IMG/VR virus record: IMGVR_UViG_3300045988_122383
Coordinates: 24,896-88,895 of that record
From: a virus
Length of the DNA stretch: 64,000 bases
Reading direction: 5' to 3' (one strand)
Each line of letters begins with the position of its first letter. Positions within the stretch are counted from its first letter, which is position 1. Below, in pieces: positions 1,901-64,000 of this stretch. A program made the translations under genes and the position numbers. The notes beneath the pieces were generated by a model. That model did not search any database. It was not told the DNA's origin and saw only the letters and a list, made by a program, of their open reading frames with translations.

Positions 1901-2539
1901 TTACTTCACTACATATATTTTTCTGTGCTGTTGCACATTTATTGTTTCGGAATGTGTTGATTTGAACACGTCTACATGCATTCCTTTTACTTTGCCTCCG
2001 CAATCTTCTGCCACAAAGATTGTGTCACCGTATCCCTCAATCTTAACTCTTGTTCCATAAGGGATAATGTTTTTATCAACCGCAATCGTATGATATGGTC
2101 GAGCAAATTTATGCCCTGCATGATTCCAAGCAATCTTAGATCCATATCCTTCAGAACATTCATAACATGGACAATATGCCGTGATCAAAAATGTTCCAAG
2201 TGAACTCTTTTCAAGTTCTCGCTTTCGCTTCAGCCGCTGTCGTTTAATTCGCAATCGTTTCTTTCGAAGTTTTTCTAATCGAATCTGTCTTGCTTGCTCT
2301 TCATCAGCTTTCTTACATTTCTGATAATGCTCATGAACGTCTTTTAATTCAACGCTTTGACTGATTGGATTGTTTGAAATCACATTGCCTTGCTTATTTT
2401 CCGCAACAGTTGTCTCTGTTGATAAGGTTGAAGTCTCCACCGAGGGTCGCTCCTCTGCTTTAACTGTGTGAGTCATAAAGCCTGAACACATTGCTAAAAA
2501 ACTAAACGAAATAACTTTCATTAAAAATCTTTTTCTCAT
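1901..2539 (-). CDS. Secreted 3D-domain protein (MltA-like cell-wall-binding/lytic-transglycosylase fold, YuiC/YabE-like).
   Basis: Signal-peptide-like N-terminus (MRKRFLMKVISFSFLAMCSGF) followed by a 3D-domain segment ITAYCPCYECSEGYG...IPYGTRVKIEGYGDTIFVAEDCGG...HVDVF. The start was moved to the ATG at 2539, which has an AAAGGAG ribosome-binding site; the track's first ATG sits at the predicted transcription start. Confidence 0.7.
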   Translation of the reverse strand: MRKRFLMKVISFSFLAMCSGFMTHTVKAEERPSVETSTLSTETTVAENKQGNVISNNPISQSVELKDVHEHYQKCKKADEEQARQIRLEKLRKKRLRIKRQRLKRKRELEKSSLGTFLITAYCPCYECSEGYGSKIAWNHAGHKFARPYHTIAVDKNIIPYGTRVKIEGYGDTIFVAEDCGGKVKGMHVDVFKSTHSETINVQQHRKIYVVK

Positions 2540-2569: not shown

Positions 2570-2607
2570 ATCTTATCATACTTCTTGCACCCTGTCAATA
2601 GGTGCAA
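2570..2607 (-). promoter_or_regulatory. Sigma-70-like promoter (-35 TTGACA, 17-nt spacer, -10 TAAGAT) with the -35 embedded in a 23-bp palindrome TTGCACC-N9-GGTGCAA. This is copy 1 of a duplicated promoter-operator.
   Basis: Read directly from the sequence. A near-identical copy lies at 44170..44207. Both copies sit immediately upstream (on the minus strand) of a gene start. Confidence 0.5.
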
Positions 2608-2616
2608 AGAATAAAG

Positions 2617-4890
2617 TTAATTTTTTAAGCTTAACCAGGTGCGCCTCTTATTATGATTTGTCATAATACATCTCTTAAACGCTTCTGGCTCTGCAAGGAG
2701 TGCAAATCTTTTCTTAGCTCGTGTCAACATTGTATATAACATACAGTTATCAAGCAATTTGTAATGTGTATTGTCAATAATACCGATCACAGTTTGCGCA
2801 GCTGATCCTTGAAGTTTATGCGTGGTTAATGCATATGCTAATTGCAGTTGTCCTAACTGAGCGAAAGAATATTCAATCAGCTTTTCTTCAATATTTGCAT
2901 TCATAGACACCAAACATATTTCTTTTTCTTTGTCAATCTCTGTAATGTATCCAATATCACCATTGAATACATCTCGCTCGTAATCATTTGAAGTCTGTAA
3001 TACCTTATCTCCTAAATAGTATTTACGATCTTTGAATTCAACAAATGGTTTGTTACTACTAGCAAATAATTCTTTCTGTACTGCTTTGTTCAATTCATCT
3101 GTGCTGTTCGTACAATTACTTCTTCGTGGAGAAATAATCACAACATTGTCAAGCCCTTCCTCTTTGACAGATTTGATATACTGCTTTACTGCCATATTGA
3201 ACAATGATTCTCTATTCTTCCTGAACAAATAAAACATATCATTTAGTTCACCATGAACAATTTTTAATTGTGGGCTATCCAATGGATTAATCCCTCTGCG
3301 AATCTTTCTTGCATCCGTTAAAATACCAGATTTTTCTGCTTGTCTCATCGGTTTGGTAAGCTGTACACTATTTAAACCTTTCTTTTTCAACAGATCCGAG
3401 AAAATATTACCAAATCCAATCGGTGGCAACTGCATATAGTCACCACAAAAAATTAATCGTGTTCCTGGTCGAATTGCCAATAAAAAATTATAGAAAAGGC
3501 TCGCATTTGTCATGCTACTTTCATCCATGATTACTACATCAGCAGGTAATGGGTTATCTTGGTTATAACAAAAACTATCAATACCTTCTGCTACAAGTAA
3601 CCTATGAATAGTCCGTGAGTCTAAGCCTGTTGCTTCTTTAATTCTTTGGGCTGCTTTTGCAGATAAAGCACACGCAACAATGCTATTATTTCTTTTTTGG
3701 TAGCATTTAATAATTGGTTTCAGAATTGTTGTTTTACCAGTTCCAGCTTCTCCAGAAATAAACACAACTTGGCAATTTAATGCTTTGTTAACTCCTGTAA
3801 TTTGTTCTTCTGAAAACATAAACCCTTCTTCATCTTCAACTTCAGAAATCGTCTGACTAATCTCACTATCTGTTATTGGTTCGTAATCTGTTGTATTTCC
3901 AAATGAATATTTCTCCATATCTTTAATAAATTCGTAAATATCCATTTCAATTTTATAATACGATTTCAGACCAATTTTATCTCCAGATGTATATAAATAA
4001 TTTGGTAATTTTTTATCTGATTCTTCATCAAACCATTCGTCAAATATAGGTAAGCATTCAGACGCTGCATTACTAATATTGCTTCTTAAATTTTTGATAT
4101 ACACATATGTATGTCCATCATTATCACCAACTTGATGCAAGTCGTAGGAAATAAATGCGTTTAACCGTTGATTTGAGCATCGCAATTCTGGTTTTAATTT
4201 GAGCGCAATATCATCAACTCGTTTAAAGCCCATGCCCTTTACCCTAGTTAGTATATATGGATTTTGTTCAATCTGTTTTTTTAAAACACTTGGATTAGGT
4301 TCGGATTTCAATAATCTTTCAATCGTTGGTAACGTAACCCCATATGGTTGCAACATTACAACAATATCAGAAATCACATAGTTTTTAATAATTTTATCTC
4401 TAAGCTTCTTCCAAGTTTTATCTCCTAGTCCTTTGATTTCTGAATGGTCAATCATCTCTAACTGACCATTCATTACATCTTCAACAACATTAGGATATTT
4501 CGCAATTAACTGATCTGCGATCACTGCGTTCGTCTGTGTTTTTAAAAATACCTTTTGTGCTTCAAAAGTTTTAGGAACTTCAGCAACTATAGAAAGTGGT
4601 TTATATTGGTATTCATTGTATTTCTTAGAATATGTCATATTGGCTTTAACCTTATATTTCGTTCCTAAATACAACTCCTGCATATTACCAACCAATTTGC
4701 CACATTTATTCATTTTTTTATCGGATAAGTCATCAAAATCATTATTATTATATGGTTTACATTCTGGTAAATCTTCTGCTGTACAGAATGTGTAAATCCC
4801 AAATAAAGATTCTTCATTATAATAAATCTGATATAATGGGACAATCTCAAACTCATATTCTTTTGTACTATCCACCACTTTAGGCGACAA
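2617..4890 (-). CDS. RecD-like SF1 DNA helicase with an N-terminal domain of unknown function.
   Basis: Walker A VFISGEAGTGKTT and Walker B VIMDESSM, plus a C-terminal RecD/TraA-like motif LAYALTTHKLQGSAAQTV. The ORF is 757 aa. Confidence 0.75.
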   Translation of the reverse strand: MSPKVVDSTKEYEFEIVPLYQIYYNEESLFGIYTFCTAEDLPECKPYNNNDFDDLSDKKMNKCGKLVGNMQELYLGTKYKVKANMTYSKKYNEYQYKPLSIVAEVPKTFEAQKVFLKTQTNAVIADQLIAKYPNVVEDVMNGQLEMIDHSEIKGLGDKTWKKLRDKIIKNYVISDIVVMLQPYGVTLPTIERLLKSEPNPSVLKKQIEQNPYILTRVKGMGFKRVDDIALKLKPELRCSNQRLNAFISYDLHQVGDNDGHTYVYIKNLRSNISNAASECLPIFDEWFDEESDKKLPNYLYTSGDKIGLKSYYKIEMDIYEFIKDMEKYSFGNTTDYEPITDSEISQTISEVEDEEGFMFSEEQITGVNKALNCQVVFISGEAGTGKTTILKPIIKCYQKRNNSIVACALSAKAAQRIKEATGLDSRTIHRLLVAEGIDSFCYNQDNPLPADVVIMDESSMTNASLFYNFLLAIRPGTRLIFCGDYMQLPPIGFGNIFSDLLKKKGLNSVQLTKPMRQAEKSGILTDARKIRRGINPLDSPQLKIVHGELNDMFYLFRKNRESLFNMAVKQYIKSVKEEGLDNVVIISPRRSNCTNSTDELNKAVQKELFASSNKPFVEFKDRKYYLGDKVLQTSNDYERDVFNGDIGYITEIDKEKEICLVSMNANIEEKLIEYSFAQLGQLQLAYALTTHKLQGSAAQTVIGIIDNTHYKLLDNCMLYTMLTRAKKRFALLAEPEAFKRCIMTNHNKRRTWLSLKN

Positions 4891-20941: not shown

Positions 20942-21453
20942 TATTTTCTTTCTCCTTTCACAATATAGGACTCAATCAATCCTTTTCTTAAGCGATCATT
21001 CATGTCCTGAATGGCTTCCTCAATTGTTTTAAATTTACATGAACAAATATGCTCTTTTGTCAAATTAACAAATGAATATGTGCCATCGGATTTGTTCTTA
21101 AAAATAACAACTACTGATTCTTCTCCATTTGGTTTTTTGACAATGAATCGAAGTGAACCTTTTGCTGCTTTATTCGGCTTCTGTTTTTGATATTCAATAC
21201 AGATATTATAATCCGTTCTTGAGCCTCTACGGACTGCATATGCCTTTTTAATCTTATAATCTTCATTGTCTGATGCAACATAATATCCTGCCGTATCATA
21301 TTCTAATTGTTCAATACGCTTCGCATTATCATAAATATTGATATATCCCCAATCCCCAACTCTTGTTTGCATCATTTCTTCAATAAATTTTTTAACGGTA
21401 TATTCCTTGTCAAATTTTACATCACTTTTCAACAAATTAAACATTTCTGCCAC
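20941..21453 (-). CDS. Hypothetical protein.
   Basis: ORF of 170 aa. Confidence 0.45.
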   Translation of the reverse strand: MAEMFNLLKSDVKFDKEYTVKKFIEEMMQTRVGDWGYINIYDNAKRIEQLEYDTAGYYVASDNEDYKIKKAYAVRRGSRTDYNICIEYQKQKPNKAAKGSLRFIVKKPNGEESVVVIFKNKSDGTYSFVNLTKEHICSCKFKTIEEAIQDMNDRLRKGLIESYIVKGERK

Positions 21454-21706
21454 CTACTTTCTTATCAAATGTTTCTTGCAAATTTAACCAGAACTGACCA
21501 TCATCAGCAAACCCATAATGGTCTGCCATTGTTTTCGCAAATTCTTTTGTAACACTTTGTGATCCGTCAATCAACCCTTGAACATAATCAACATCCATGC
21601 CAATTTTACTCGCAAGCTGATAAGGAGTCATCCTGCAAGATTCAACAAATTCTTCTAAGCATTCGCCAGGATGAAAAGCAATTTCGTCTCCAATCTTTAC
21701 ATACAT
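21437..21706 (-). CDS. HigA-family (XRE-type) HTH protein.
   Basis: 89 aa with an HTH segment TPYQLASKIGMDVDYVQGLIDG and the HigA-hallmark C-terminus FGFADDGQFWLNLQ. Its start abuts the stop codon of the nucleotidyltransferase gene. Confidence 0.55.
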   Translation of the reverse strand: MYVKIGDEIAFHPGECLEEFVESCRMTPYQLASKIGMDVDYVQGLIDGSQSVTKEFAKTMADHYGFADDGQFWLNLQETFDKKVGGRNV

Positions 21707-39878: not shown

Positions 39879-41219
39879 TTATTTAATTGCTACGAAGATT
39901 TCATAACTCTTATTGTCATTGATATAAATTTCTTTGCCCTTGAGTTCTGGGAAATACTTCTTAGCAAGTTTCTTAAATTCCTTAATCTTTTGACCATTCT
40001 CGTCCTCATATGATTCTTTAAGTGGATCAAACATTAATTCTTCTTTCTTTACGACAAAGAATTTTGCATGAGGTAAACCTTTGCGTTCCTCTTCTCTGTG
40101 CTTATCATTCTCGATGATCTCTTCCAGTTTGCATAAATTTTCTGTCACTTCAATGCAGCTACTTGGATATTTCACATATTTGTTTGTCCAAAAATCAACT
40201 GCATCATGAGCACCTGCGTTACCAAACAGGTATTTTAATACACAAGTCTTGAAACCTTCTTCTCTGTTAAATCTGTCGAATCTGCTTGTATAAGCAACAG
40301 TTTCAGTACCACAGTTCCAAACCACCTTAACCATACCTCTGTAAAATTTAGCCTTAGTTACTGGTTTACCACCTCTTTCGAGTGGCTTACCATTACTATC
40401 TAAAACAGGTTCCCTAACTGTCATCTCTTTGTCTACATAAATAACTTTTTTGATTTTGTCTTTTAATTTTTCTGTATTCATATCTTTCTCCTCTTCGTTT
40501 CCTGTAAGTTCACTCATGATTTCATCCAATTTTTCTGACGCAAATGTTAAAGTTGCACTCATTTCACCATTCCAATCAATATGTGTTGGTGCATAAGGAC
40601 TCAACCCACGGTCGTCATGTATCATCCATGATTTCCCTGTGGTTGAAAGCTCACCAGCCTCATTCTTTATTGGTTCTGACGTTGCAGTAATTGGTTTTTG
40701 TTGATAGTGTGACAGAGCAGACACTCTTCTTTCTGAAAGTGACGGTAGGGTTAATGTATTAACCTTTATTTTGTCGGCTGAAATCGTACCTGTCTTAATC
40801 TCAATATCTTCATTCATTGTTTCTTTTCTTGTAATTCTTCTGATTATAATAGTTGCCTCTGTCGACTTTATACTTTGTAGTCTATATCGCAGTTTTTCAT
40901 ACCAATATGGAACAATAATATTTACTTTACCATCTCTATACACATCCATTTCAATCGACTCAGCATCATCAAATGTAATATCGTGCCAAGGTTGCGTTGT
41001 TTTAGCAACTTTGGTATGTGGCTTTATCATATAAGTTTCGGTTATTGGAAGATCTCCTTTGAATTCTACTGTTTCAATTTTAAACATCGCATATACATCA
41101 TTATTCTCTACCTCAACAACATCTCCTACATTAAATGGCGCCATACCATCTCGTGGATTATATTTAACTTCTTTACCATTCATACAGCGTACCCAAACGC
41201 CCGTTTTATTTTCATCCAT
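39879..41219 (-). CDS. Large hypothetical protein (446 aa).
   Basis: Long ORF with no recognizable motif. Confidence 0.5.
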   Translation of the reverse strand: MDENKTGVWVRCMNGKEVKYNPRDGMAPFNVGDVVEVENNDVYAMFKIETVEFKGDLPITETYMIKPHTKVAKTTQPWHDITFDDAESIEMDVYRDGKVNIIVPYWYEKLRYRLQSIKSTEATIIIRRITRKETMNEDIEIKTGTISADKIKVNTLTLPSLSERRVSALSHYQQKPITATSEPIKNEAGELSTTGKSWMIHDDRGLSPYAPTHIDWNGEMSATLTFASEKLDEIMSELTGNEEEKDMNTEKLKDKIKKVIYVDKEMTVREPVLDSNGKPLERGGKPVTKAKFYRGMVKVVWNCGTETVAYTSRFDRFNREEGFKTCVLKYLFGNAGAHDAVDFWTNKYVKYPSSCIEVTENLCKLEEIIENDKHREEERKGLPHAKFFVVKKEELMFDPLKESYEDENGQKIKEFKKLAKKYFPELKGKEIYINDNKSYEIFVAIK

Positions 41220-41414: not shown

Positions 41415-42065
41415 CTACCCAATTATATTCTGGATAAGCTCATAATACTTTGTCCTGCCGACATACGACTTATGTTCTGCATCTTTTAATTCTTTCTTCA
41501 AAGTACATATATCTTTCTGATTATCCATGCAATTCTGCATCACTTCTATGTATCGAATACAATTCTTGATCTTTCTATGCAATTCTTGTAAGGTTTTAAG
41601 ATACCCAACAATCACTGCACGTTTCGCAGCATCAATCTTTTTAAACTCAATCGCATGAAGAATATCACTTCTGGCAGAATCGGCATATGATAATGCCTGT
41701 TCTAATTCAAACTTCTTTTCTCCTAATTGATCTGAGTCATATGCTAGAAGTCCTACTATAGCTCTTTCCTCAGTCTCTATATTGTCGATCAATGTATTAT
41801 CACATTCCCAATCCATAAAGCAATTTCCATTACCTTTACGCATTATTTCACTAGATTCCATAGGTTTTCCAACTTTACCTAGCTCAATTTCTCTGGCATG
41901 AAATCCGTCTTTCATCCACGTATATTTATGCTTCAAACCTAAAATGTGCTTTGCTTGCTTAGAGGTAAATTGAGTAGCTTCAGACTTACGATTATCACGA
42001 ACGTATTTATTTCTTGCATGATCTCTTTTCACATAGAACTCTCCATTCGTAATTATGTATTTCAT
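41415..42065 (-). CDS. Hypothetical protein.
   Basis: ORF of 216 aa. Confidence 0.45.
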   Translation of the reverse strand: MKYIITNGEFYVKRDHARNKYVRDNRKSEATQFTSKQAKHILGLKHKYTWMKDGFHAREIELGKVGKPMESSEIMRKGNGNCFMDWECDNTLIDNIETEERAIVGLLAYDSDQLGEKKFELEQALSYADSARSDILHAIEFKKIDAAKRAVIVGYLKTLQELHRKIKNCIRYIEVMQNCMDNQKDICTLKKELKDAEHKSYVGRTKYYELIQNIIG

Positions 42066-42111
42066 ACATCACTCCTGTATTTAATTGTAGTTTTTTGGAA
42101 AAATTTTCATG

Positions 42112-42140
42112 TTGACGAACATGTTTAGAATTGTTATAAT
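42112..42140 (+). promoter_or_regulatory. Near-consensus sigma-70 promoter on the plus strand: TTGACG, 17-nt spacer, TG-extended TATAAT.
   Basis: Read from the sequence. It lies in the intergenic region between two minus-strand genes and points away from any plus-strand ORF. Confidence 0.45.
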
Positions 42141-42146
42141 GATTTT

Positions 42147-42243
42147 AAGGATAATAATATCCTTATCTATTAAACAATTCTAAATATCAAATTCGATTTT
42201 CTATCGTGCTGCCAACACGGTAGATTCAAAAAATCTTTTTTTG
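42147..42243 (+). ncRNA. Candidate small RNA of about 95 nt transcribed from the orphan plus-strand promoter.
   Basis: The predicted start is followed by hairpin AAGGATA-ATAA-TATCCTT and hairpin TCTATCGTG-ctgccaa-CACGGTAGA, then ...AAAAAATCTTTTTTT. It contains no ATG. This is an inference only. Confidence 0.3.
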
Positions 42244-42258
42244 TTATCTATGATTTGT

Positions 42259-42624
42259 TTAGTTGAAATTTTTAGTTTGTGTGAAAGTAGAAGTTTTACC
42301 AAAGACTTCTGCTTTCTTTTTTATTGTCTGTATTTTTATTCCAACATTGTATCTCTCTTTGTATGTAAATTGCAGGCATTTGATTATGTCAAATATGTCG
42401 TCCTGCCTAATATGAGAGAACAAATTCTCATCTTGAATAAATTCGATCCAATGATATGAAAGATCTTTATCTTTGCCATAGATCTTCATCTTTCTATCAT
42501 CTGCTCGAATCTTATATTCACTCAGAAACCACGATGACATTTCTGATGAGTGTAAATCAAGTACATCAATATGCATTTGATTTGATTGATTCGCTACCAA
42601 TGTTTTTAATATTTGATTGTCCAT
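42259..42624 (-). CDS. Hypothetical protein.
   Basis: ORF of 121 aa; last gene of the operon that begins with the MazF-like gene. Confidence 0.45.
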   Translation of the reverse strand: MDNQILKTLVANQSNQMHIDVLDLHSSEMSSWFLSEYKIRADDRKMKIYGKDKDLSYHWIEFIQDENLFSHIRQDDIFDIIKCLQFTYKERYNVGIKIQTIKKKAEVFGKTSTFTQTKNFN

Positions 42625-42638
42625 ACATATACCTTCCT

Positions 42639-43667
42639 TTATTCTGTCATAATTTGATGTACACGATAATTCTTATAGTCCTCATCTTTATATAAATAAC
42701 CAATAGTTTTACCAATTACAGTTTGACGATCACTAAATTGTTTCTTTTTTAATCTATATGATATATAATAATTATAATAAAATTCAATTGCAATTTCACT
42801 AAATTGACGTGCGATTATAGATCGTGCGATTCCTTCTTTTGATTTAATATAATATAAATCTGCAATTGCCTTGATATCCATTTTAGATTTTAAATATTGT
42901 ATAAAACCAGAATTAATAACATCAATGGTTGTCAATTTCTCATAAGATAAAGTGTTACCAGTTAATTCTAATTGAGACTGCACATTGTTATATATCCTCT
43001 TTTGCTCTGCTTGATATTCTTCTATATTATTACATTTTTTTCGTGGTATTAATACAAAATCATCATATATATTCGTATCTCCCATTTTCAATTTATATTC
43101 ATTCAATGTCTCGATAAAATCTTTGGAGACTGGTTTCCCAAAAATTGTTAAATCATTTTGATTAATATCTGAGAATTTTAGATTTCTTAACTCCTTTCCA
43201 TTTATCCCATTATATAAACTCACAATATGAAATCTAGTATTCAATTTGGTATCGGCTGATGCATTGCACGACATCAGATTCGAAATAAACGCATTTATTT
43301 TATCTGGTGTAACATAATTAACATTAACTCTATTTGAAAAATATATATCAACTGCTAATTGCAAGTTTATAAATTTATCATTAACAAATGGATTATATTT
43401 AATGTAATTTTGTTCATATGCATAAGTATATAGTTTAACGAGCTGGTCATATCTTTTTTTAATAGAATTCATACTTTTGGTTTTTTTACCTCTAGTATCT
43501 GATAATATAGCCTCTTGGATTGTACCTGGTGCATACGTTAACCCAGATTCATTGTCGTCCGCAATATCAGAATCTAACAACCAATTCCATGTTGGGCGAC
43601 GTGATTCTGATACGTGAGAATCTATATAATTTTGTATCAATTCTTTATTATTCATAATATTCTCCAT
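42639..43667 (-). CDS. Hypothetical protein.
   Basis: ORF of 342 aa. Confidence 0.45.
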   Translation of the reverse strand: MENIMNNKELIQNYIDSHVSESRRPTWNWLLDSDIADDNESGLTYAPGTIQEAILSDTRGKKTKSMNSIKKRYDQLVKLYTYAYEQNYIKYNPFVNDKFINLQLAVDIYFSNRVNVNYVTPDKINAFISNLMSCNASADTKLNTRFHIVSLYNGINGKELRNLKFSDINQNDLTIFGKPVSKDFIETLNEYKLKMGDTNIYDDFVLIPRKKCNNIEEYQAEQKRIYNNVQSQLELTGNTLSYEKLTTIDVINSGFIQYLKSKMDIKAIADLYYIKSKEGIARSIIARQFSEIAIEFYYNYYISYRLKKKQFSDRQTVIGKTIGYLYKDEDYKNYRVHQIMTE

Positions 43668-43669
43668 TT

Positions 43670-44119
43670 CTAGGATGCCATTGCATTCATGTACGATAAC
43701 ATGCCGTTTTGTATTAAAATGCCATGTCCTATTTTTAACATTAAAGATAGATCAGATATTCTTCCCCAATACTCTAAAAGATTATTCTTTGGAATTGTTC
43801 TTCCTTGCTCTAAATACACCTGTGATACCATTTTTAATCCATTACTGGTATTTGGATAAATGGTTACATGTGTCGGTATCCAGTTCCTTAATTTTTTTGT
43901 AATTGGATACACGTTAATCTCTGTGCTCGTATTATTACAAATATTATTAGAATATACGATGACTGGTCTTTTCCCATGCAAGATATGACTACCTTCAATT
44001 TTCGGCAAATCTGCAAAATATATTCCCCAAACTTGAGGATTTTGATATTTGCCATATACATATTCTTTTCTTTTTCTGTTATCGTTTCCTTTTCTTTCTT
44101 TGTTAGTATATCCGTTCAT
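43670..44119 (-). CDS. MazF/PemK/EndoA-family endoribonuclease (toxin-like mRNA interferase).
   Basis: VWGIYFADLPKIEGSHILHGKRPVIVYSNN...VYPITKKLRNWIPTHVTI...SQVYLEQGRTIPKNNL aligns block-for-block with Bacillus EndoA (VYFADLSPVVGSEQGGVRPVLV...KLPTHVEI...LEQIRTIDK). The start was moved to ATG 44119, which has a GAGGGA ribosome-binding site. There is no upstream antitoxin ORF. Confidence 0.7.
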   Translation of the reverse strand: MNGYTNKERKGNDNRKRKEYVYGKYQNPQVWGIYFADLPKIEGSHILHGKRPVIVYSNNICNNTSTEINVYPITKKLRNWIPTHVTIYPNTSNGLKMVSQVYLEQGRTIPKNNLLEYWGRISDLSLMLKIGHGILIQNGMLSYMNAMAS

Positions 44120-44169: not shown

Positions 44170-44207
44170 AATATACCATACTTTTTGCACCCTGTCAATA
44201 GGTGCAA
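44170..44207 (-). promoter_or_regulatory. Promoter-operator copy 2: -35 TTGACA, 17-nt spacer, -10 TATATT, with the -35 inside the same TTGCACC-N9-GGTGCAA palindrome.
   Basis: About 60 bp are near-identical to 2570..2628, including an A/T-rich block upstream of the -35. Confidence 0.5.
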
Positions 44208-44279
44208 GAAAGAAAGTTAATTTTTGTTGTGAACAAAGAATCTCTACATTTCTTATTATAATGCTACCATAGAACAAAA

Positions 44280-44600
44280 TCAAGATATTTTTCGAACAGA
44301 TGTTCTCTTTTTGTTCGAACACTTTACTTTGTGCTTACTTGGAAGGGGGAAATACTGTCTAACTTTATGAGGCTTATCCAGTTTCCATTTCTTTTCTTCA
44401 AAATCATAGTCACAAAAATCAAGCACTTCGTCCACACATCCATCATTATATTTGTAATCCACAATAACAGGATATGTTTTATACCTCATGTAACGTGATG
44501 CATTATCTGGTTTTAATGGTGGAATCTCTGCTGAAATCCACATAAGATTCTGGTTTGCTTTCTTTTCTTCCTTATTTTGTCTAATCGTATTTATCTTCAT
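44280..44600 (-). CDS. Hypothetical protein.
   Basis: ORF of 106 aa. Confidence 0.45.
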   Translation of the reverse strand: MKINTIRQNKEEKKANQNLMWISAEIPPLKPDNASRYMRYKTYPVIVDYKYNDGCVDEVLDFCDYDFEEKKWKLDKPHKVRQYFPLPSKHKVKCSNKKRTSVRKIS

Positions 44601-44611
44601 ACAAAATTCTC

Positions 44612-45358
44612 CTATAAAATCCTAATAATTTGTTCGTAAATTGCAATCGCATTATCTTCTGGAAAGTTCTGGTTCACATGCATATGCCCAAAGAACCATT
44701 TTTGATAAATCACTTTGTCTTTTATTTGCTGTAAATAATCCGTTAACTTGTCAGATTTGTACACTCCTGATCCTTGATCCATTTGTCTTAAAACAGATGT
44801 GTATGGACTATGTGTAATAACGTAATCTACTTGGAAGTCATTTTTCTCTAAATTCATCACACCTTCTGCCATCTCTTTATCAGATGGCAATTCTTCTTTC
44901 CACCAGCTCACATGATTAATCCTAAACATTTTGTCATAATCTCTGTACCATTCATTAATTCTTGGATCGTCTGGCTCTAAAATTCCATCTTGCACATCAT
45001 GGGAACTGGCACCGCCAAATGTAAAGAATTTCTTTCCTTGAATTTCAAACACCTGTCCACGCATAAGATGAAATACAGAGTCTTTGATCTTGTGAATCTT
45101 TCCGCCACACCATTTCTCTACAGGATATTGATATAAGCGGTCGTAATTTTCATGATTCCCACATACAAACAATGTAGTAAATGGCTTGTTATCTAACCAT
45201 TCCAGATTATATCGTTCTTCTTTTGTGTCATGCCACAGTCCAAAATCTCCGCAGATAATCACATAATCATCTTTGGTTAACTCAACTCCCTCTGGGAAAG
45301 AACGACTGTTTAATCGAGTCATCCAATCCCCATGTGTATCTCCTGTTACAAATATCAT
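44612..45358 (-). CDS. Calcineurin-like metallophosphoesterase.
   Basis: Motifs GDTHGD, GDFG and GNHE. Confidence 0.7.
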   Translation of the reverse strand: MIFVTGDTHGDWMTRLNSRSFPEGVELTKDDYVIICGDFGLWHDTKEERYNLEWLDNKPFTTLFVCGNHENYDRLYQYPVEKWCGGKIHKIKDSVFHLMRGQVFEIQGKKFFTFGGASSHDVQDGILEPDDPRINEWYRDYDKMFRINHVSWWKEELPSDKEMAEGVMNLEKNDFQVDYVITHSPYTSVLRQMDQGSGVYKSDKLTDYLQQIKDKVIYQKWFFGHMHVNQNFPEDNAIAIYEQIIRIL

Positions 45359-46305
45359 ACAATTACTCCTTCCAATAACTCTTCTAATGCCTGCATATTA
45401 TCTTCATGTACTCTATCATCTTGATCTGCATCATCTTTGCCAGTCTTATAAGCAAACTTGATAATCTCCATAACTCTATCATAACTCACATTAACAACAT
45501 TTTCCTTCAATCCGTTAAAAGCCCCACTGATAATTTCCTTGTATGTCTGCGCAATATCATCAAACAATACATGAGTTTCTTCCTCTGTGATTGTTGCATA
45601 CAGAAATGTCATTGCAGGGCTACTATGATTCAATAATCTCATAAGTGTATACAATACGTTCTGATCATCTTTATGATCGACAAGTGTCCAATACACAAAG
45701 TTCTTTCGTAATGTATGCGTACCAATATTGTCCTCAATTCCAACTGCTTTAGCACCTTTTTTAACAAAATCCAAAGCATTTGCTTCAGTCATGTGTCCTA
45801 ATCCAGACTTACATGTTCCAAAAACATAATCATCCATTGGCACTTCGCCATCAATCTTGACATCATATTTAGTTCCTGCAACAGCTTCAAAGAAAATATC
45901 CACTGCTTCAGTTACCAAATCGTTAAAGTATACCGTTCTGAATTTCTTTGTTTTCTTTTCCTGCTTACGAGTCTTATCGTCTAATAAATCGCCCCATTTG
46001 AGTCTGACGATATCAGAGATACGATATGCTGTATTGTTTCCAACTGCAACCAAAAGATTGTTTCTGGCAGCTACATATCGTTTGTACTCTGTGTACGATT
46101 TATCAATCTGGTCTCTAAAATATGCATTAAAGGCTGCAAATTTTTCTTTGTTCTTAATTGGATACACTAAAGATGATACGCCTTTTTGTTTATTAGATCG
46201 AGTCCATTTAGGATTTCCGTCCTTACGTCTTTTGATCTTTGCTTCAGGTTCTTCTGCGTTATTATTGTTTGCTGTTTTAATAACTTCAAATTGTGTTGCT
46301 GCCAT
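45355..46305 (-). CDS. Tyrosine site-specific recombinase (phage integrase/Xer family).
   Basis: Catalytic Arg (AYRISDIVRLKW), His-x-x-Arg (GTHTLRKNF) and a C-terminal LLNHSSPAMTFLY containing the catalytic Tyr. Confidence 0.7.
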   Translation of the reverse strand: MAATQFEVIKTANNNNAEEPEAKIKRRKDGNPKWTRSNKQKGVSSLVYPIKNKEKFAAFNAYFRDQIDKSYTEYKRYVAARNNLLVAVGNNTAYRISDIVRLKWGDLLDDKTRKQEKKTKKFRTVYFNDLVTEAVDIFFEAVAGTKYDVKIDGEVPMDDYVFGTCKSGLGHMTEANALDFVKKGAKAVGIEDNIGTHTLRKNFVYWTLVDHKDDQNVLYTLMRLLNHSSPAMTFLYATITEEETHVLFDDIAQTYKEIISGAFNGLKENVVNVSYDRVMEIIKFAYKTGKDDADQDDRVHEDNMQALEELLEGVIV

Positions 46306-62852: not shown

Positions 62853-63145
62853 AATTTCCTTCTTTCTACTTATCAGACTTGATAAGATTTTAAAATTTAA
62901 TAGTTCTATAATGCCGATTAAAGCGGTATGCAAGACAGTGAACAATGTTCATATAATTTGTATACAAATTACTAACTACTATGGTACAAGCCGTTGGCGT
63001 TCATTTATAAATACAAATATACTACTAATTGATATACTTGCCATTGTGCTATAATCAGCACTAACAACCATTAAAAAGTTGTTTAAAGTTTGAACCATGT
63101 CTTTTCTACTCTAAGACAAGAAAAGAGTTGCTACAATTTGTTACA

Positions 63146-63180
63146 AAAAACAGAGTATCAAAAAATGATACCCTTAAGTT
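63146..63180 (-). terminator. Rho-independent terminator on the minus strand, inside the long non-coding region.
   Basis: GGGTATCA-TTTTTT-GATACTC followed by TGTTTTTTGT. There is no annotated minus-strand CDS upstream of it. Confidence 0.4.
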
Positions 63181-63739
63181 TAGATCCGTTCAATGTTAAG
63201 TTGTTAACTTCACATATAACAAATATATGAAGGTTTGCCAGTCGTACCCTTTACCCGTTATCCTATGATTGCGGTTTATTCCCTACTCTGCCACACGGCG
63301 ATTACTCATCACGTTTACACCTTTTTATGGTGCTTCTATGTATACCCTGGAAGCTTTACCCTCCGTTATCTAGGGTATACAATCCTATCATGATAAAGGA
63401 CTGAAATCATTCAATTTTTCGCCGTTCGTGGGAGATTGTCAAAAGAATTATTGACAATAAAGAATAATATCTGATATACTTTAGTTGCGAAGTAAAGGTA
63501 TATCTTATATCTTTAAAGGCTTGCTGGAATCATCACGACTTTAGCAAGTCTTTTTTCTTTGCCTAAATAACCTATATCATCATAGGTAATGTGTTAAATT
63601 GTATAATTGTTTATTTTTTATCATCTCCTTTTATAAAGCTTAATTTACAAGCTGTAAGTTAATTGAGATTTTAAAACTCTGCGGATCAATCAAGATCGTT
63701 TGTTTTACTACTCTTTTAACTTGTCTTTATTATATCATG

Positions 63740-63895
63740 ACTAGTATTGTTATGTCAATACTTTTTTCAATTTTTTTGATTTACTTTTTTGAGTAAATCG
63801 TGATATAATAATATCAATCGGATTGGACTTGTATGTCTTATCCTTTTGACAGTTATAATTATACAATACTAGTATTGCTATGTCAATACTTTTTT
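63740..63895. promoter_or_regulatory. Two copies (63740..63767 and 63868..63895) of a 28-bp operator-like repeat ACTAGTATTG(T/C)TATGTCAATACTTTTTT, each holding the inverted repeat GTATTG-N6-CAATAC. Copy 2 overlaps a TTGACA-N17-TAGTAT promoter upstream of the rightward edge gene.
   Basis: Read from the sequence. An extended -10 promoter (TGATATAAT) lies between the two copies. Confidence 0.4.
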
Positions 63896-63919
63896 GAATA
63901 AATTTAGGAGTAATTTTAT

Positions 63920-64000
63920 ATGTATAATATTGTAAAAAATCAAGATGATCTTATCTTGCAGATCAAACATTATATGCTAGATAATAAGTTAAAGCAAAAA
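63920..64000 (+). CDS. Start of a plus-strand gene (MYNIVKNQDDLILQIKHYMLDNKLKQK...), truncated by the window edge.
   Basis: ATG at 63920, 9 nt after an AGGAG ribosome-binding site. Confidence 0.4.
   Translation, partial: MYNIVKNQDDLILQIKHYMLDNKLKQK

Follow-up and report, generated by a model that had tools for sequence, protein, structure and literature searches.

A promoter repeated 41.6 kb apart in an uncultured gut phage encloses its -35 box in an inverted repeat with lineage-specific arms

We analysed a window of 64,000 nt from the viral record IMGVR_UViG_3300045988_122383 and describe here a promoter that occurs in it twice, on the minus strand and 41.6 kb apart: site A (~2570-2626) lies 5' of a gene for a 3D-domain protein and site B (~44170-44226) 5' of a gene for a PemK/MazF-like protein. 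In both copies the -35 box is enclosed by an inverted repeat, and across related phages the arms of this repeat turn over while their symmetry is kept and while the two distant sites change together. These features suggest that one symmetric, lineage-specific phage regulator acts over the -35 region of both promoters, most likely as a repressor, a reading that we regard as probable though well short of secure.

A repeat search of the window recovered the two copies as a direct repeat of 52 nt with 90% identity (2574-2625 and 44174-44225), and their likeness reaches ~56 nt when they are aligned. This agrees with an original prediction, made from the letters of the window, of a near-identical duplicated promoter at 2570..2628 and 44170..44220. 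A promoter scan of the minus strand, together with exact matching, bore out the architecture proposed there, namely a -35 box inside a palindrome, a 17-nt spacer, the -10 hexamers TAAGAT and TATATT, and an upstream A/T block. At site A (full module 2570-2626) the -35 TTGACA lies at 2598-2593 and, after a spacer of 17 nt, the -10 TAAGAT at 2575-2570; at site B (full module 44170-44226) the TTGACA lies at 44198-44193 and, after the same spacing, the TATATT at 44175-44170. The match to the sigma-A consensus is 10/12 for TTGACA-17-TAAGAT and 11/12 for TTGACA-17-TATATT. One base 5' of each -10 stands a TG (TRTG) motif, TATGATAAGAT and TATGGTATATT, which is present in nearly all relatives, and on these motifs both copies are sigma-70/sigma-A-type promoters with an extended -10 of the Gram-positive type. 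The extended -10 of site A, TGATAAGAT (2570-2578), is of a TAAGAT/TATGAT type that is retained at this site across lineages.

Read along the coding strand, each copy consists of the A/T block AAAAATTAACTTT, seven variable bases, TTGCACC, TA-TTGACA-G, GGTGCAA, the rest of the 17-nt spacer ending in TATG, and the -10. The A/T block is UP-element-like and occupies 2625-2613 at site A, where it contains the stop codon (2617-2619) of the upstream helicase gene, and 44225-44213 at site B. The dyad is in both places a perfect 7-9-7 inverted repeat, TTGCACC-TATTGACAG-GGTGCAA, at 2585-2607 (-35 at 2593-2598) and 44185-44207 (-35 at 44193-44198). Its loop had been read as CTATTGACAG (10 nt) and is corrected here to 9 nt, the extra C belonging to the left arm. 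Given a one-base bulge, the arms of site B lengthen to CTTTcTTGCACC and GGTGCAAAAAG.

The exact 23-mer TTGCACC-N9-GGTGCAA is found in the window at these two positions only; with up to two mismatches allowed there are still two occurrences, against a chance expectation of 0.12, and no further copy of the dyad was found in the window at spacings of 3-15 with at most two mismatches. We scored the best ungapped inverted repeat with the -35 hexamer in its loop against shuffles of the flanks, and obtained p=0.007 for site A and p=0.003 for site B, while such a -35-enclosing repeat was absent from 14/14 further promoter-like sites on the window's coding strand (all p>0.17). As single-stranded DNA, site A is predicted to fold into a hairpin of -7.3 kcal/mol (z=-4.0) and site B into one of -7.4 kcal/mol (z=-3.6). 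The stem is followed directly by GAAGTATG or AAAGTATG and not by a run of T, a terminator scan of both strands made no call at either site, and an intrinsic terminator is thereby ruled out; Rfam likewise returned no match at either site. The exact 23-mer does not occur in 185,579 species-representative bacterial genomes, nor was the family of a 342-amino-acid (aa) protein encoded behind site B found in them, which indicates that the promoter does not belong to the host; a prophage copy was not found either.

The relatives of the 342-aa open reading frame (ORF) keep a common gene order: a 316-aa integrase, a metallophosphatase (in some), a 106-aa ORF, the promoter, PemK, and then the 342-aa, 121-aa and 216-aa ORFs. 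The metallophosphatase gene lies at 44612-45358, between the genes for the integrase and the 106-aa ORF; some lineages (L117, L120-L122) lack it or retain no more than a 37-aa remnant. The orthologous site B promoters, from at least eight lineages, retain TATTGACAN, the 17-nt spacing and TATATT or TATAGT, and their arms differ in each lineage yet stay inverted repeats. Written as left arm, loop and right arm, the repeat of the window and lineage P0001 is TTGCACC - TATTGACAG - GGTGCAA (7/7 pairs), and pairing is likewise complete in P0006, TTAACTGC - TATTGACTA - GCAGTTAA (8/8), and P0064, ATTACCAATCCAA - CTCTTGACAAA - TTGGATTGGTAAT (13/13). One pair fails in P0002, ATTAATTGGCAC - TGTTGACAA - GTGGCAATTAAT (11/12), P0003, TTGACAC - TGTTGACAA - GTGGCAA (6/7), P0004, TTGAAAC - TATTGACAA - GTATCAA (6/7), and P0005, TTATCTGC - TATTGACTA - GAAGATAA (7/8). 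Lineage P0007 has ATATCTTTAAACGC - TATTGACAA - GCATATAAAGGTAT (11/14), in its short form ATATCTTTAAAYGC-N9-GCAYATAAAGRTAT.

Covariation between the arms was assessed on an ungapped alignment of 10 sequences, with column shuffles (n=500) and slid partners as controls. The paired cells amounted to 85%, compared with 60% under column shuffling (0/500 shuffles reached 85%) and 35-45% for slid partners; change on both sides was seen in 8/10 pairs, and the covariation score was 0.593 against 0.187. The flank-shuffle test, extended across lineages, gave p<=0.02 for 13/14 promoters, lineage P0063 being the sole weak one. The palindrome had been proposed to have the geometry of a repressor or activator site, and both the significance of the -35-overlapping symmetry and its retention through complete turnover of the arms lend weight to that proposal.

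Sites A and B could both be read in three lineages, those of the window, P0003 and P0007. In the P0003 lineage, where the 3D protein P0014 and the 342-aa protein P0003 were taken to lie on one contig since the longest contig of each measures 204,764 bp, the left arm, loop and right arm are TTGACAC, TGTTGACAA and GTGGCAA at site B and TTGGCAC, TATTGACAG and GCGGCAA at site A. In the P0007 lineage, whose type of 342-aa ORF is encoded (98.8%) by IMG/VR contigs 3300045988_120021 and 3300045988_133024, site B has the arms ATATCTTTAAACGC and GCATATAAAGGTAT and site A the arms ATATCTTTAAATGC and GCACATAAAGATAT. When site A is compared with site B inside one lineage, 21-22 of 25 arm and flank positions are identical, as are 3-4 of the 6 positions of the -10 hexamer; when the same site is compared across lineages, the respective figures are 9-16 of 25 and 5-6 of 6. 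Each site thus retains its own -10 hexamer across lineages, and the arms follow the lineage instead. Over the 3.6 kb of its site A locus, contig 120021 shares 94.7% identity with the window; the figure falls to 65-70% across the arms only, and these arms match the contig's own site B. A fourth case of concerted change is probable, the left arm of site A in L127 being that of site B in the P0064 lineage, from different samples. An apparent exception, L258, with the arms of the window and a 342-aa ORF scored at 69%, proved to carry a frameshift-ridden copy of the window's own type of ORF. Identical arms at distant sites would be required by a sequence-specific factor acting in trans, and not by a function of structure alone. 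The original prediction of a single phage regulator for both genes is therefore strengthened by the joint change of the arms in three lineages and by their kept symmetry, and the part of it that concerns binding and transcription stays a prediction.

Further copies of the element are known from close relatives. The exact 23-mer was found in 87 stretches of IMG/VR, at 2-3 per contig, so that the search for additional copies proposed earlier was negative beyond the two sites in the window and positive among the relatives. The third copy, site C, was found in only three contigs of the window's lineage (L025, L033, L067); it shares the arms and -10 region of the other sites and differs in its upstream flank. 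Aligned to the window, it would stand ~3.1 kb past the right end, in the opposite direction, and it heads an operon divergent from promoters of perfect consensus at 63886 and 63758. More than 1.8 kb without convincing ORFs precedes this operon, and Pfam searches with its first genes were uninformative. Variation within the window's lineage, read by a flank-anchored search that left arms and loop free, is seen in the loop (TA to CG, G to A), in the innermost arm pair (two singletons) and in the flanks, the outer 6 bp of each arm being invariant in ~100 instances. Just outside the arms, sites A and B differ in a way that is compensatory with a one-base bulge (ATTCT...GAAG versus CTTTC...AAAG). 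One variant of site B (among L238-L263) carries the site C-like upstream flank ATAACCAACTTCCCTCC before its left arm, which suggests that copies of the element recombine with each other.

The same flank pattern was matched by unrelated environmental viral contigs (L088-L095, L098, L099, L101-L104, L106, L107, L110-L112 and L114), whose promoter, AATTAACTTTTTATTAAAAAACAC-TTGACA-...AAGTATGCTATAAT, contains no palindrome; the repeat outside the arms is thus largely generic Gram-positive strong-promoter sequence. When IMG/VR was searched for the site as it reads in L117 and in L118, no match was returned, and a pattern anchored on the flanks of site A recovered the window's lineage alone.

The genes behind site B diverge along with the arms. 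We measured protein identity to the window in three lineages (L117, L118 and L120, in this order), and found 72, 71 and 70% for PemK and 57, 66 and 55% for the 342-aa ORF, compared with 81, 95 and 92% for the 316-aa integrase (45355-46305) and 81, 92 and 93% for the 106-aa ORF. The 216-aa ORF gave 89, 58 and 97%, and the 121-aa ORF 76, 74 and 93%. Most neighbours of the cassette are 90-99% identical to the window; by these comparisons the arms, PemK and the 342-aa ORF make up a hypervariable cassette with conserved surroundings. Three families of arms can be told apart, and they match the three clades of the 342-aa protein. The lowest G+C content of the window, 0.284 at 42001-44000 against ~0.33-0.36 elsewhere, coincides with the cassette of PemK, the 342-aa and the 121-aa ORFs.

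Several proteins might set the specificity of the arms. The original prediction had named as candidates an XRE protein and a HigA-like helix-turn-helix protein. The XRE protein (29979-30197) has one and the same sequence in 3 contigs whose arms are of the P0007 type and in 21 whose arms are those of the window, and so cannot determine arm specificity; for the HigA-like protein (21437-21706) the look-up contigs came without lineage assignment. The XRE/Cro-like ORF, of 72 aa, is the sole convincing plus-strand gene in the 64 kb and is 86-100% conserved across relatives. The 121-aa ORF (42259-42624, minus strand), the last gene of the apparent site B operon, is an unlikely setter of specificity, since it is 93% conserved in one lineage where the arms differ.

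The leading candidate for the arm-reading regulator, tentatively, is the 342-aa protein (42639-43667, minus strand), encoded in the apparent site B operon. Its homologues form seven clusters among 5.8 billion proteins, at 55-98% identity, and a profile search across 1.84 billion representatives yielded only 2 more full-length proteins, too few for a deeper alignment. The protein matches the phrog_1 integrase family (E=4.2e-10, residues 6-214), with 3/8 members of its own family passing E<=0.001, and its matches to the Pfam families Phage_int_SAM_5 and Phage_integrase are sub-threshold. In an alignment read by eye, the position of the first catalytic arginine (LYNGI-x) appears to be N, S or D in 8/8 members, and we treat the protein as integrase-related and probably non-catalytic. 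Searches of the PDB sequences by phmmer and by profile gave no match; Foldseek aligned a segment the size of an N-terminal domain to 2kob (probability 0.96), a match short of significance.

From these data we propose the following scheme. A promoter of the host sigma-A type would have its -35 enclosed by a dyad-symmetric operator, both arms of which would be read by a symmetric, probably dimeric phage DNA-binding protein. Lying across the -35, with the dyad centre at ~-33, this protein would most likely block RNA polymerase and thus repress the 3D-domain gene and the operon of PemK and the 342-aa ORF, and in some relatives also a third promoter, which heads the divergent operon. Its specificity would differ by lineage, and the operators at all sites would track it, as in heteroimmune phage variants. 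The regulator would most likely be the 342-aa protein from site B's own operon, maybe together with the PemK-like protein, in which case the system would be autoregulatory. We infer from the sequence patterns that a protein, and not a nucleic-acid fold, reads the dyad, as we do its repressing action and its identity.

Several observations weigh against this proposal. The regulon would be small, with only 2 copies in the window and 3 in a few relatives. The pairing of the arms allows a one-base bulge, and the loops range from 7 to 17 nt in distant lineages, features that a nucleic-acid hairpin would accommodate more naturally than a rigid protein dimer would; moreover, the centres of the half-sites are ~16 bp apart, which is unusual for simple helix-turn-helix dimers. 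Phylogeny by itself would lead linked loci to diverge together, and gene conversion contributes to the likeness of the copies, to judge from the site B variant with the site C-like flank. With regard to the candidate itself, the 446-aa ORF at 39879-41219 (minus strand), for which no family match was found, is as hypervariable as PemK and the 342-aa ORF (51, 60 and 52% identity in the same three lineages), its neighbours being ~90% or more identical. The AlphaFold2 (AF2) model of the 342-aa protein has a mean predicted confidence (pLDDT) of 56 and thus offers no confident structure, a Foldseek search with it returned nothing significant (Tn1549 integrase, E=0.44), and neither BLASTP nor hhalign found significant similarity between the 342-aa family and MrpR (YopR), the repressor of phage SPbeta.

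The main rival explanation, which we consider unlikely though the most serious of those that follow, is that the dyad works as a nucleic-acid hairpin, either an RNA stem-loop in read-through transcripts from the helicase gene or from a promoter-like site at 44255-44283, with a role in processing, stability or attenuation, or a DNA cruciform, and that the likeness of the sites comes from gene conversion. The covariation, which keeps pairing rather than sequence, would suit such a structure, as would the tolerance of a one-base bulge, the complementarity of 10-15 bp in some lineages, the predicted single-stranded DNA folds of -7.3 to -10.2 kcal/mol (z -3.5 to -5.5), the variable loop length in distant lineages, and the evidence of recombination between copies. 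A hairpin, however, would have no need for the same arms 41.6 kb apart, which are nevertheless seen in three lineages, and conversion tracts would always have to end before the -10, whose hexamers stay site-specific. The dyad also precedes the point at which its own transcript begins, it is not followed by the T-run of an intrinsic terminator, and a 7-bp stem with a 9-nt loop is poor for cruciform extrusion.

The promoter-like site just mentioned (TTGATT, 17 nt, TATAAT; 44255-44283, minus strand) stands ~75 nt upstream of site B and is conserved throughout the lineages, the most distant ones included. Inside the helicase coding sequence (2640-2670), a similar CATAATAAGAG string lies equally far upstream of site A. 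Transcripts from these upstream sites would carry the dyad as an RNA stem.

It is less likely still that the dyad, instead of binding a repressor, is the site of an activator or of a sigma-associated factor by which RNA polymerase is recruited. Such a role would fit a dyad that flanks the -35 hexamer instead of replacing it, a site A -10 (TAAGAT) that matches the consensus at only 4/6 positions, and the two sigma-70-family proteins encoded by the phage. Against it, the consensus -35, 17-nt spacer and extended -10 make the promoters look self-sufficient, which suggests that an activator is not needed; the dyad centre at ~-33 lies on the face of sigma region 4, class II activators being centred near -41.5, and promoters of a phage sigma factor would be expected at many genes, not at 2-3.

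Two further explanations are very improbable. A plain duplicated strong promoter, as in a moron-type cassette, with an incidental palindrome would be in keeping with the unrelated contigs that have a similar A/T block, TTGACA and AAGTATGnTATAAT promoter and no palindrome, but it is contradicted by the covariation of the arms: the symmetry has been held through full sequence turnover in at least 8 lineages, and the dyad is absent from 14 other promoter-like sites of the window. The inverted repeats might also be core sites (of the lox, dif or attP type) at which the neighbouring 316-aa tyrosine recombinase carries out resolution, inversion or excision, given that a distance of 1.1 kb separates site B from this bona fide Phage_integrase gene upstream of it and that the 7-9-7 geometry is loosely core-site-like; we rejected this reading since the integrase is 92-95% identical in two lineages with wholly different arms (81% in a third), the central 9 bp are the constant -35 box where known core sites have spacers of 6-8 bp, and recombination between direct repeats at this distance of 41.6 kb would cost the phage its replication and early region.

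The closest analogue to the proposed regulation is found in SPbeta, whose MrpR (YopR) protein, a repressor with a tyrosine-recombinase fold, binds an element termed SPBRE (SPbeta repeated element) at ~10 promoters, including those of yorM, aimR, spbT and yopM, the last being the promoter of its own operon yopM-yopR (PMC10516654). SPBRE copies taken from NC_001884 read TAGACA-AATACAAAWAATATGTA-TATAAT, with an inverted repeat in the spacer, and one of them stands directly 3' of the polymerase gene yorL and 5' of the 3D-domain gene yorM. Both systems have a promoter that contains an inverted repeat and recurs at scattered places in a large Firmicutes phage genome, and in both the element is found before a 3D gene that ends the replication module (yorM; site A) and before the operon of a recombinase-like protein (yopM-yopR; site B). 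They differ in that the SPBRE repeat, ATACA-N7-TGTAT, lies in the spacer between -35 and -10, whereas the arms in the window enclose the -35; in the number of copies, ~10 against 2-3; and in the candidate regulator, which in the window is paired with a PemK-like toxin and has no similarity to MrpR. A comparison of the SPBRE consensus TAGACAAATACAAAWAATATGTATATAAT with sites A and B showed nothing in common beyond the -35 and -10 hexamers, and no similarity was found between the 342-aa protein and SPbeta YopP or between the 316-aa ORF and YopR. Binding by MrpR is proven, whereas the system described here is known from its sequence, and by this comparison it is an analogue of SPBRE/MrpR and not a member of it. 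The SPBRE promoter of yorM (L116 882-930) falls inside the annotated coding start of yorM, and the annotated start codon in NC_001884 is probably too far upstream.

Lineage-specific, heteroimmune-like recognition at dispersed sites is also known from Cluster A mycobacteriophages, whose stoperators change between lineages in step with a diverging repressor (PMC6550527, PMC9283540). Stoperators, however, are asymmetric 13-bp sites, bound by monomers, that number tens per genome and partly block elongation, whereas the sites described here are symmetric, number 2-3 and enclose the -35. A third likeness is to the MazF/PemK toxin-antitoxin systems (kis-kid/parD, mazEF) and the toxin-first systems higBA and mqsRA, in that a PemK-fold toxin stands behind a palindrome-overlapped promoter and co-diverges with the adjacent gene. 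MqsA reportedly binds copies of its own palindrome at other promoters. No small antitoxin gene of the PemI/MazE type was found at site B, where no ORF separates the promoter from PemK and the next gene is the 342-aa ORF, and PADLOC gave no model match. The partner in the window thus differs from those of toxin-antitoxin systems in being a 342-aa integrase-related protein downstream of the toxin.

The window, with a G+C content of ~34%, has all its long ORFs on the minus strand and a negative GC skew throughout. Related IMG/VR contigs reach ~165 kb and come chiefly from human gut samples; the source is an uncultured gut phage with a genome of ~160 kb. Megablast of 12 kb against cultured phages gave no nucleotide match. 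The RecD2-like helicase (2617-4890, minus strand; Pfam AAA_30, SH3_13 and HHH_RecD2), whose gene overlaps the upstream edge of site A with its 3' end, is at most 32% identical to proteins of cultured phages, among them Brevibacillus phage Sundance, SPbeta-like staphylococcal phages and large Bacillus phages. It belongs to a replication module in which, apart from RecD2 and the 3D gene, both backed by Pfam, the labels are readings of translations by eye: a putative 404-aa Sak4-like ATPase, a putative DnaB-like helicase, a putative primase, a putative RecJ-like protein, a putative DnaE-type polymerase, RecD2, the 3D gene and an NAD-ligase, in an order syntenic with SPbeta yorG-yorM.

The products expected behind the two promoters, a secreted 3D-domain protein and a MazF-like protein, were both recovered. 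Site A lies between the stop codon of the helicase gene and the 3D-domain gene (1901-2539, minus strand; Pfam 3D, E=4.4e-12), which encodes 212 aa from an ATG at 2539, with a signal-peptide-like N-terminus and a ribosome-binding site AAAGGAGA at 2547-2554. Site B is followed by the PemK/MazF-like gene (43670-44119, minus strand; 149 aa; Pfam PemK_toxin, E=1.7e-15; phrog_1936 MazF-like), the 342-aa ORF and the 121-aa ORF, with gaps of 2-14 nt. The true starts are probably 2539 and 44119, each preceded by a ribosome-binding site, and not those of the longest ORFs. The two sigma-70-family proteins of the phage (22556-23089 and 15900-16442, minus strand; Pfam Sigma70_r2 and r4) imply that middle or late transcription is directed by the phage; this in turn suggests that the consensus sigma-A promoters serve early transcription or are read by the host.

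Other features of the window lie apart from the two sites. Two sigma-A promoters of perfect consensus (TTGACA, 17 or 18 nt, TATAAT; 12/12) are found 128 bp apart at 63729-63758 and 63858-63886 (minus strand), within a repeat at 63740-63771 and 63868-63899 that is 94% identical. Each spacer contains a palindrome, CAATACTAGTATTG, and the -35 is overlapped by a third AGTATTG half-site, a geometry closer to that of SPBRE than to sites A and B; the pair heads a non-coding stretch of ~1 kb (62946-64000). Next to the XRE ORF, an Rfam tRNA match of 43.8 bits spans 139 nt (30238-30376, minus strand) where ARAGORN finds no tRNA in the window, and may be an interrupted or atypical tRNA-like element.

Almost nothing is known of gene regulation in gut phages with large uncultured genomes, and the present case offers a testable regulon of 2-3 promoters, an operator of 23-37 bp, natural variants in at least eight lineages and a short list of regulators, the natural arm variants being a ready-made specificity swap. 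More speculatively, the PemK-like toxin and a catalytically dead, integrase-derived 342-aa protein might constitute a new type of hypervariable specificity cassette, that is, a recombinase-derived repressor of separate origin from MrpR, toxin-coupled and autoregulated, with matching operators at the 3D gene (and at the divergent operon in some relatives), on which diversifying selection would have produced heteroimmune-like lineages in one gut phage species. If the 342-aa protein does bind the dyad, recombinase-derived repressors acting on repeated promoters would be known from a distant phage group as well as from SPbeta, and the repressor would be linked to both a MazF-like toxin and a secreted, cell-wall-active 3D protein.

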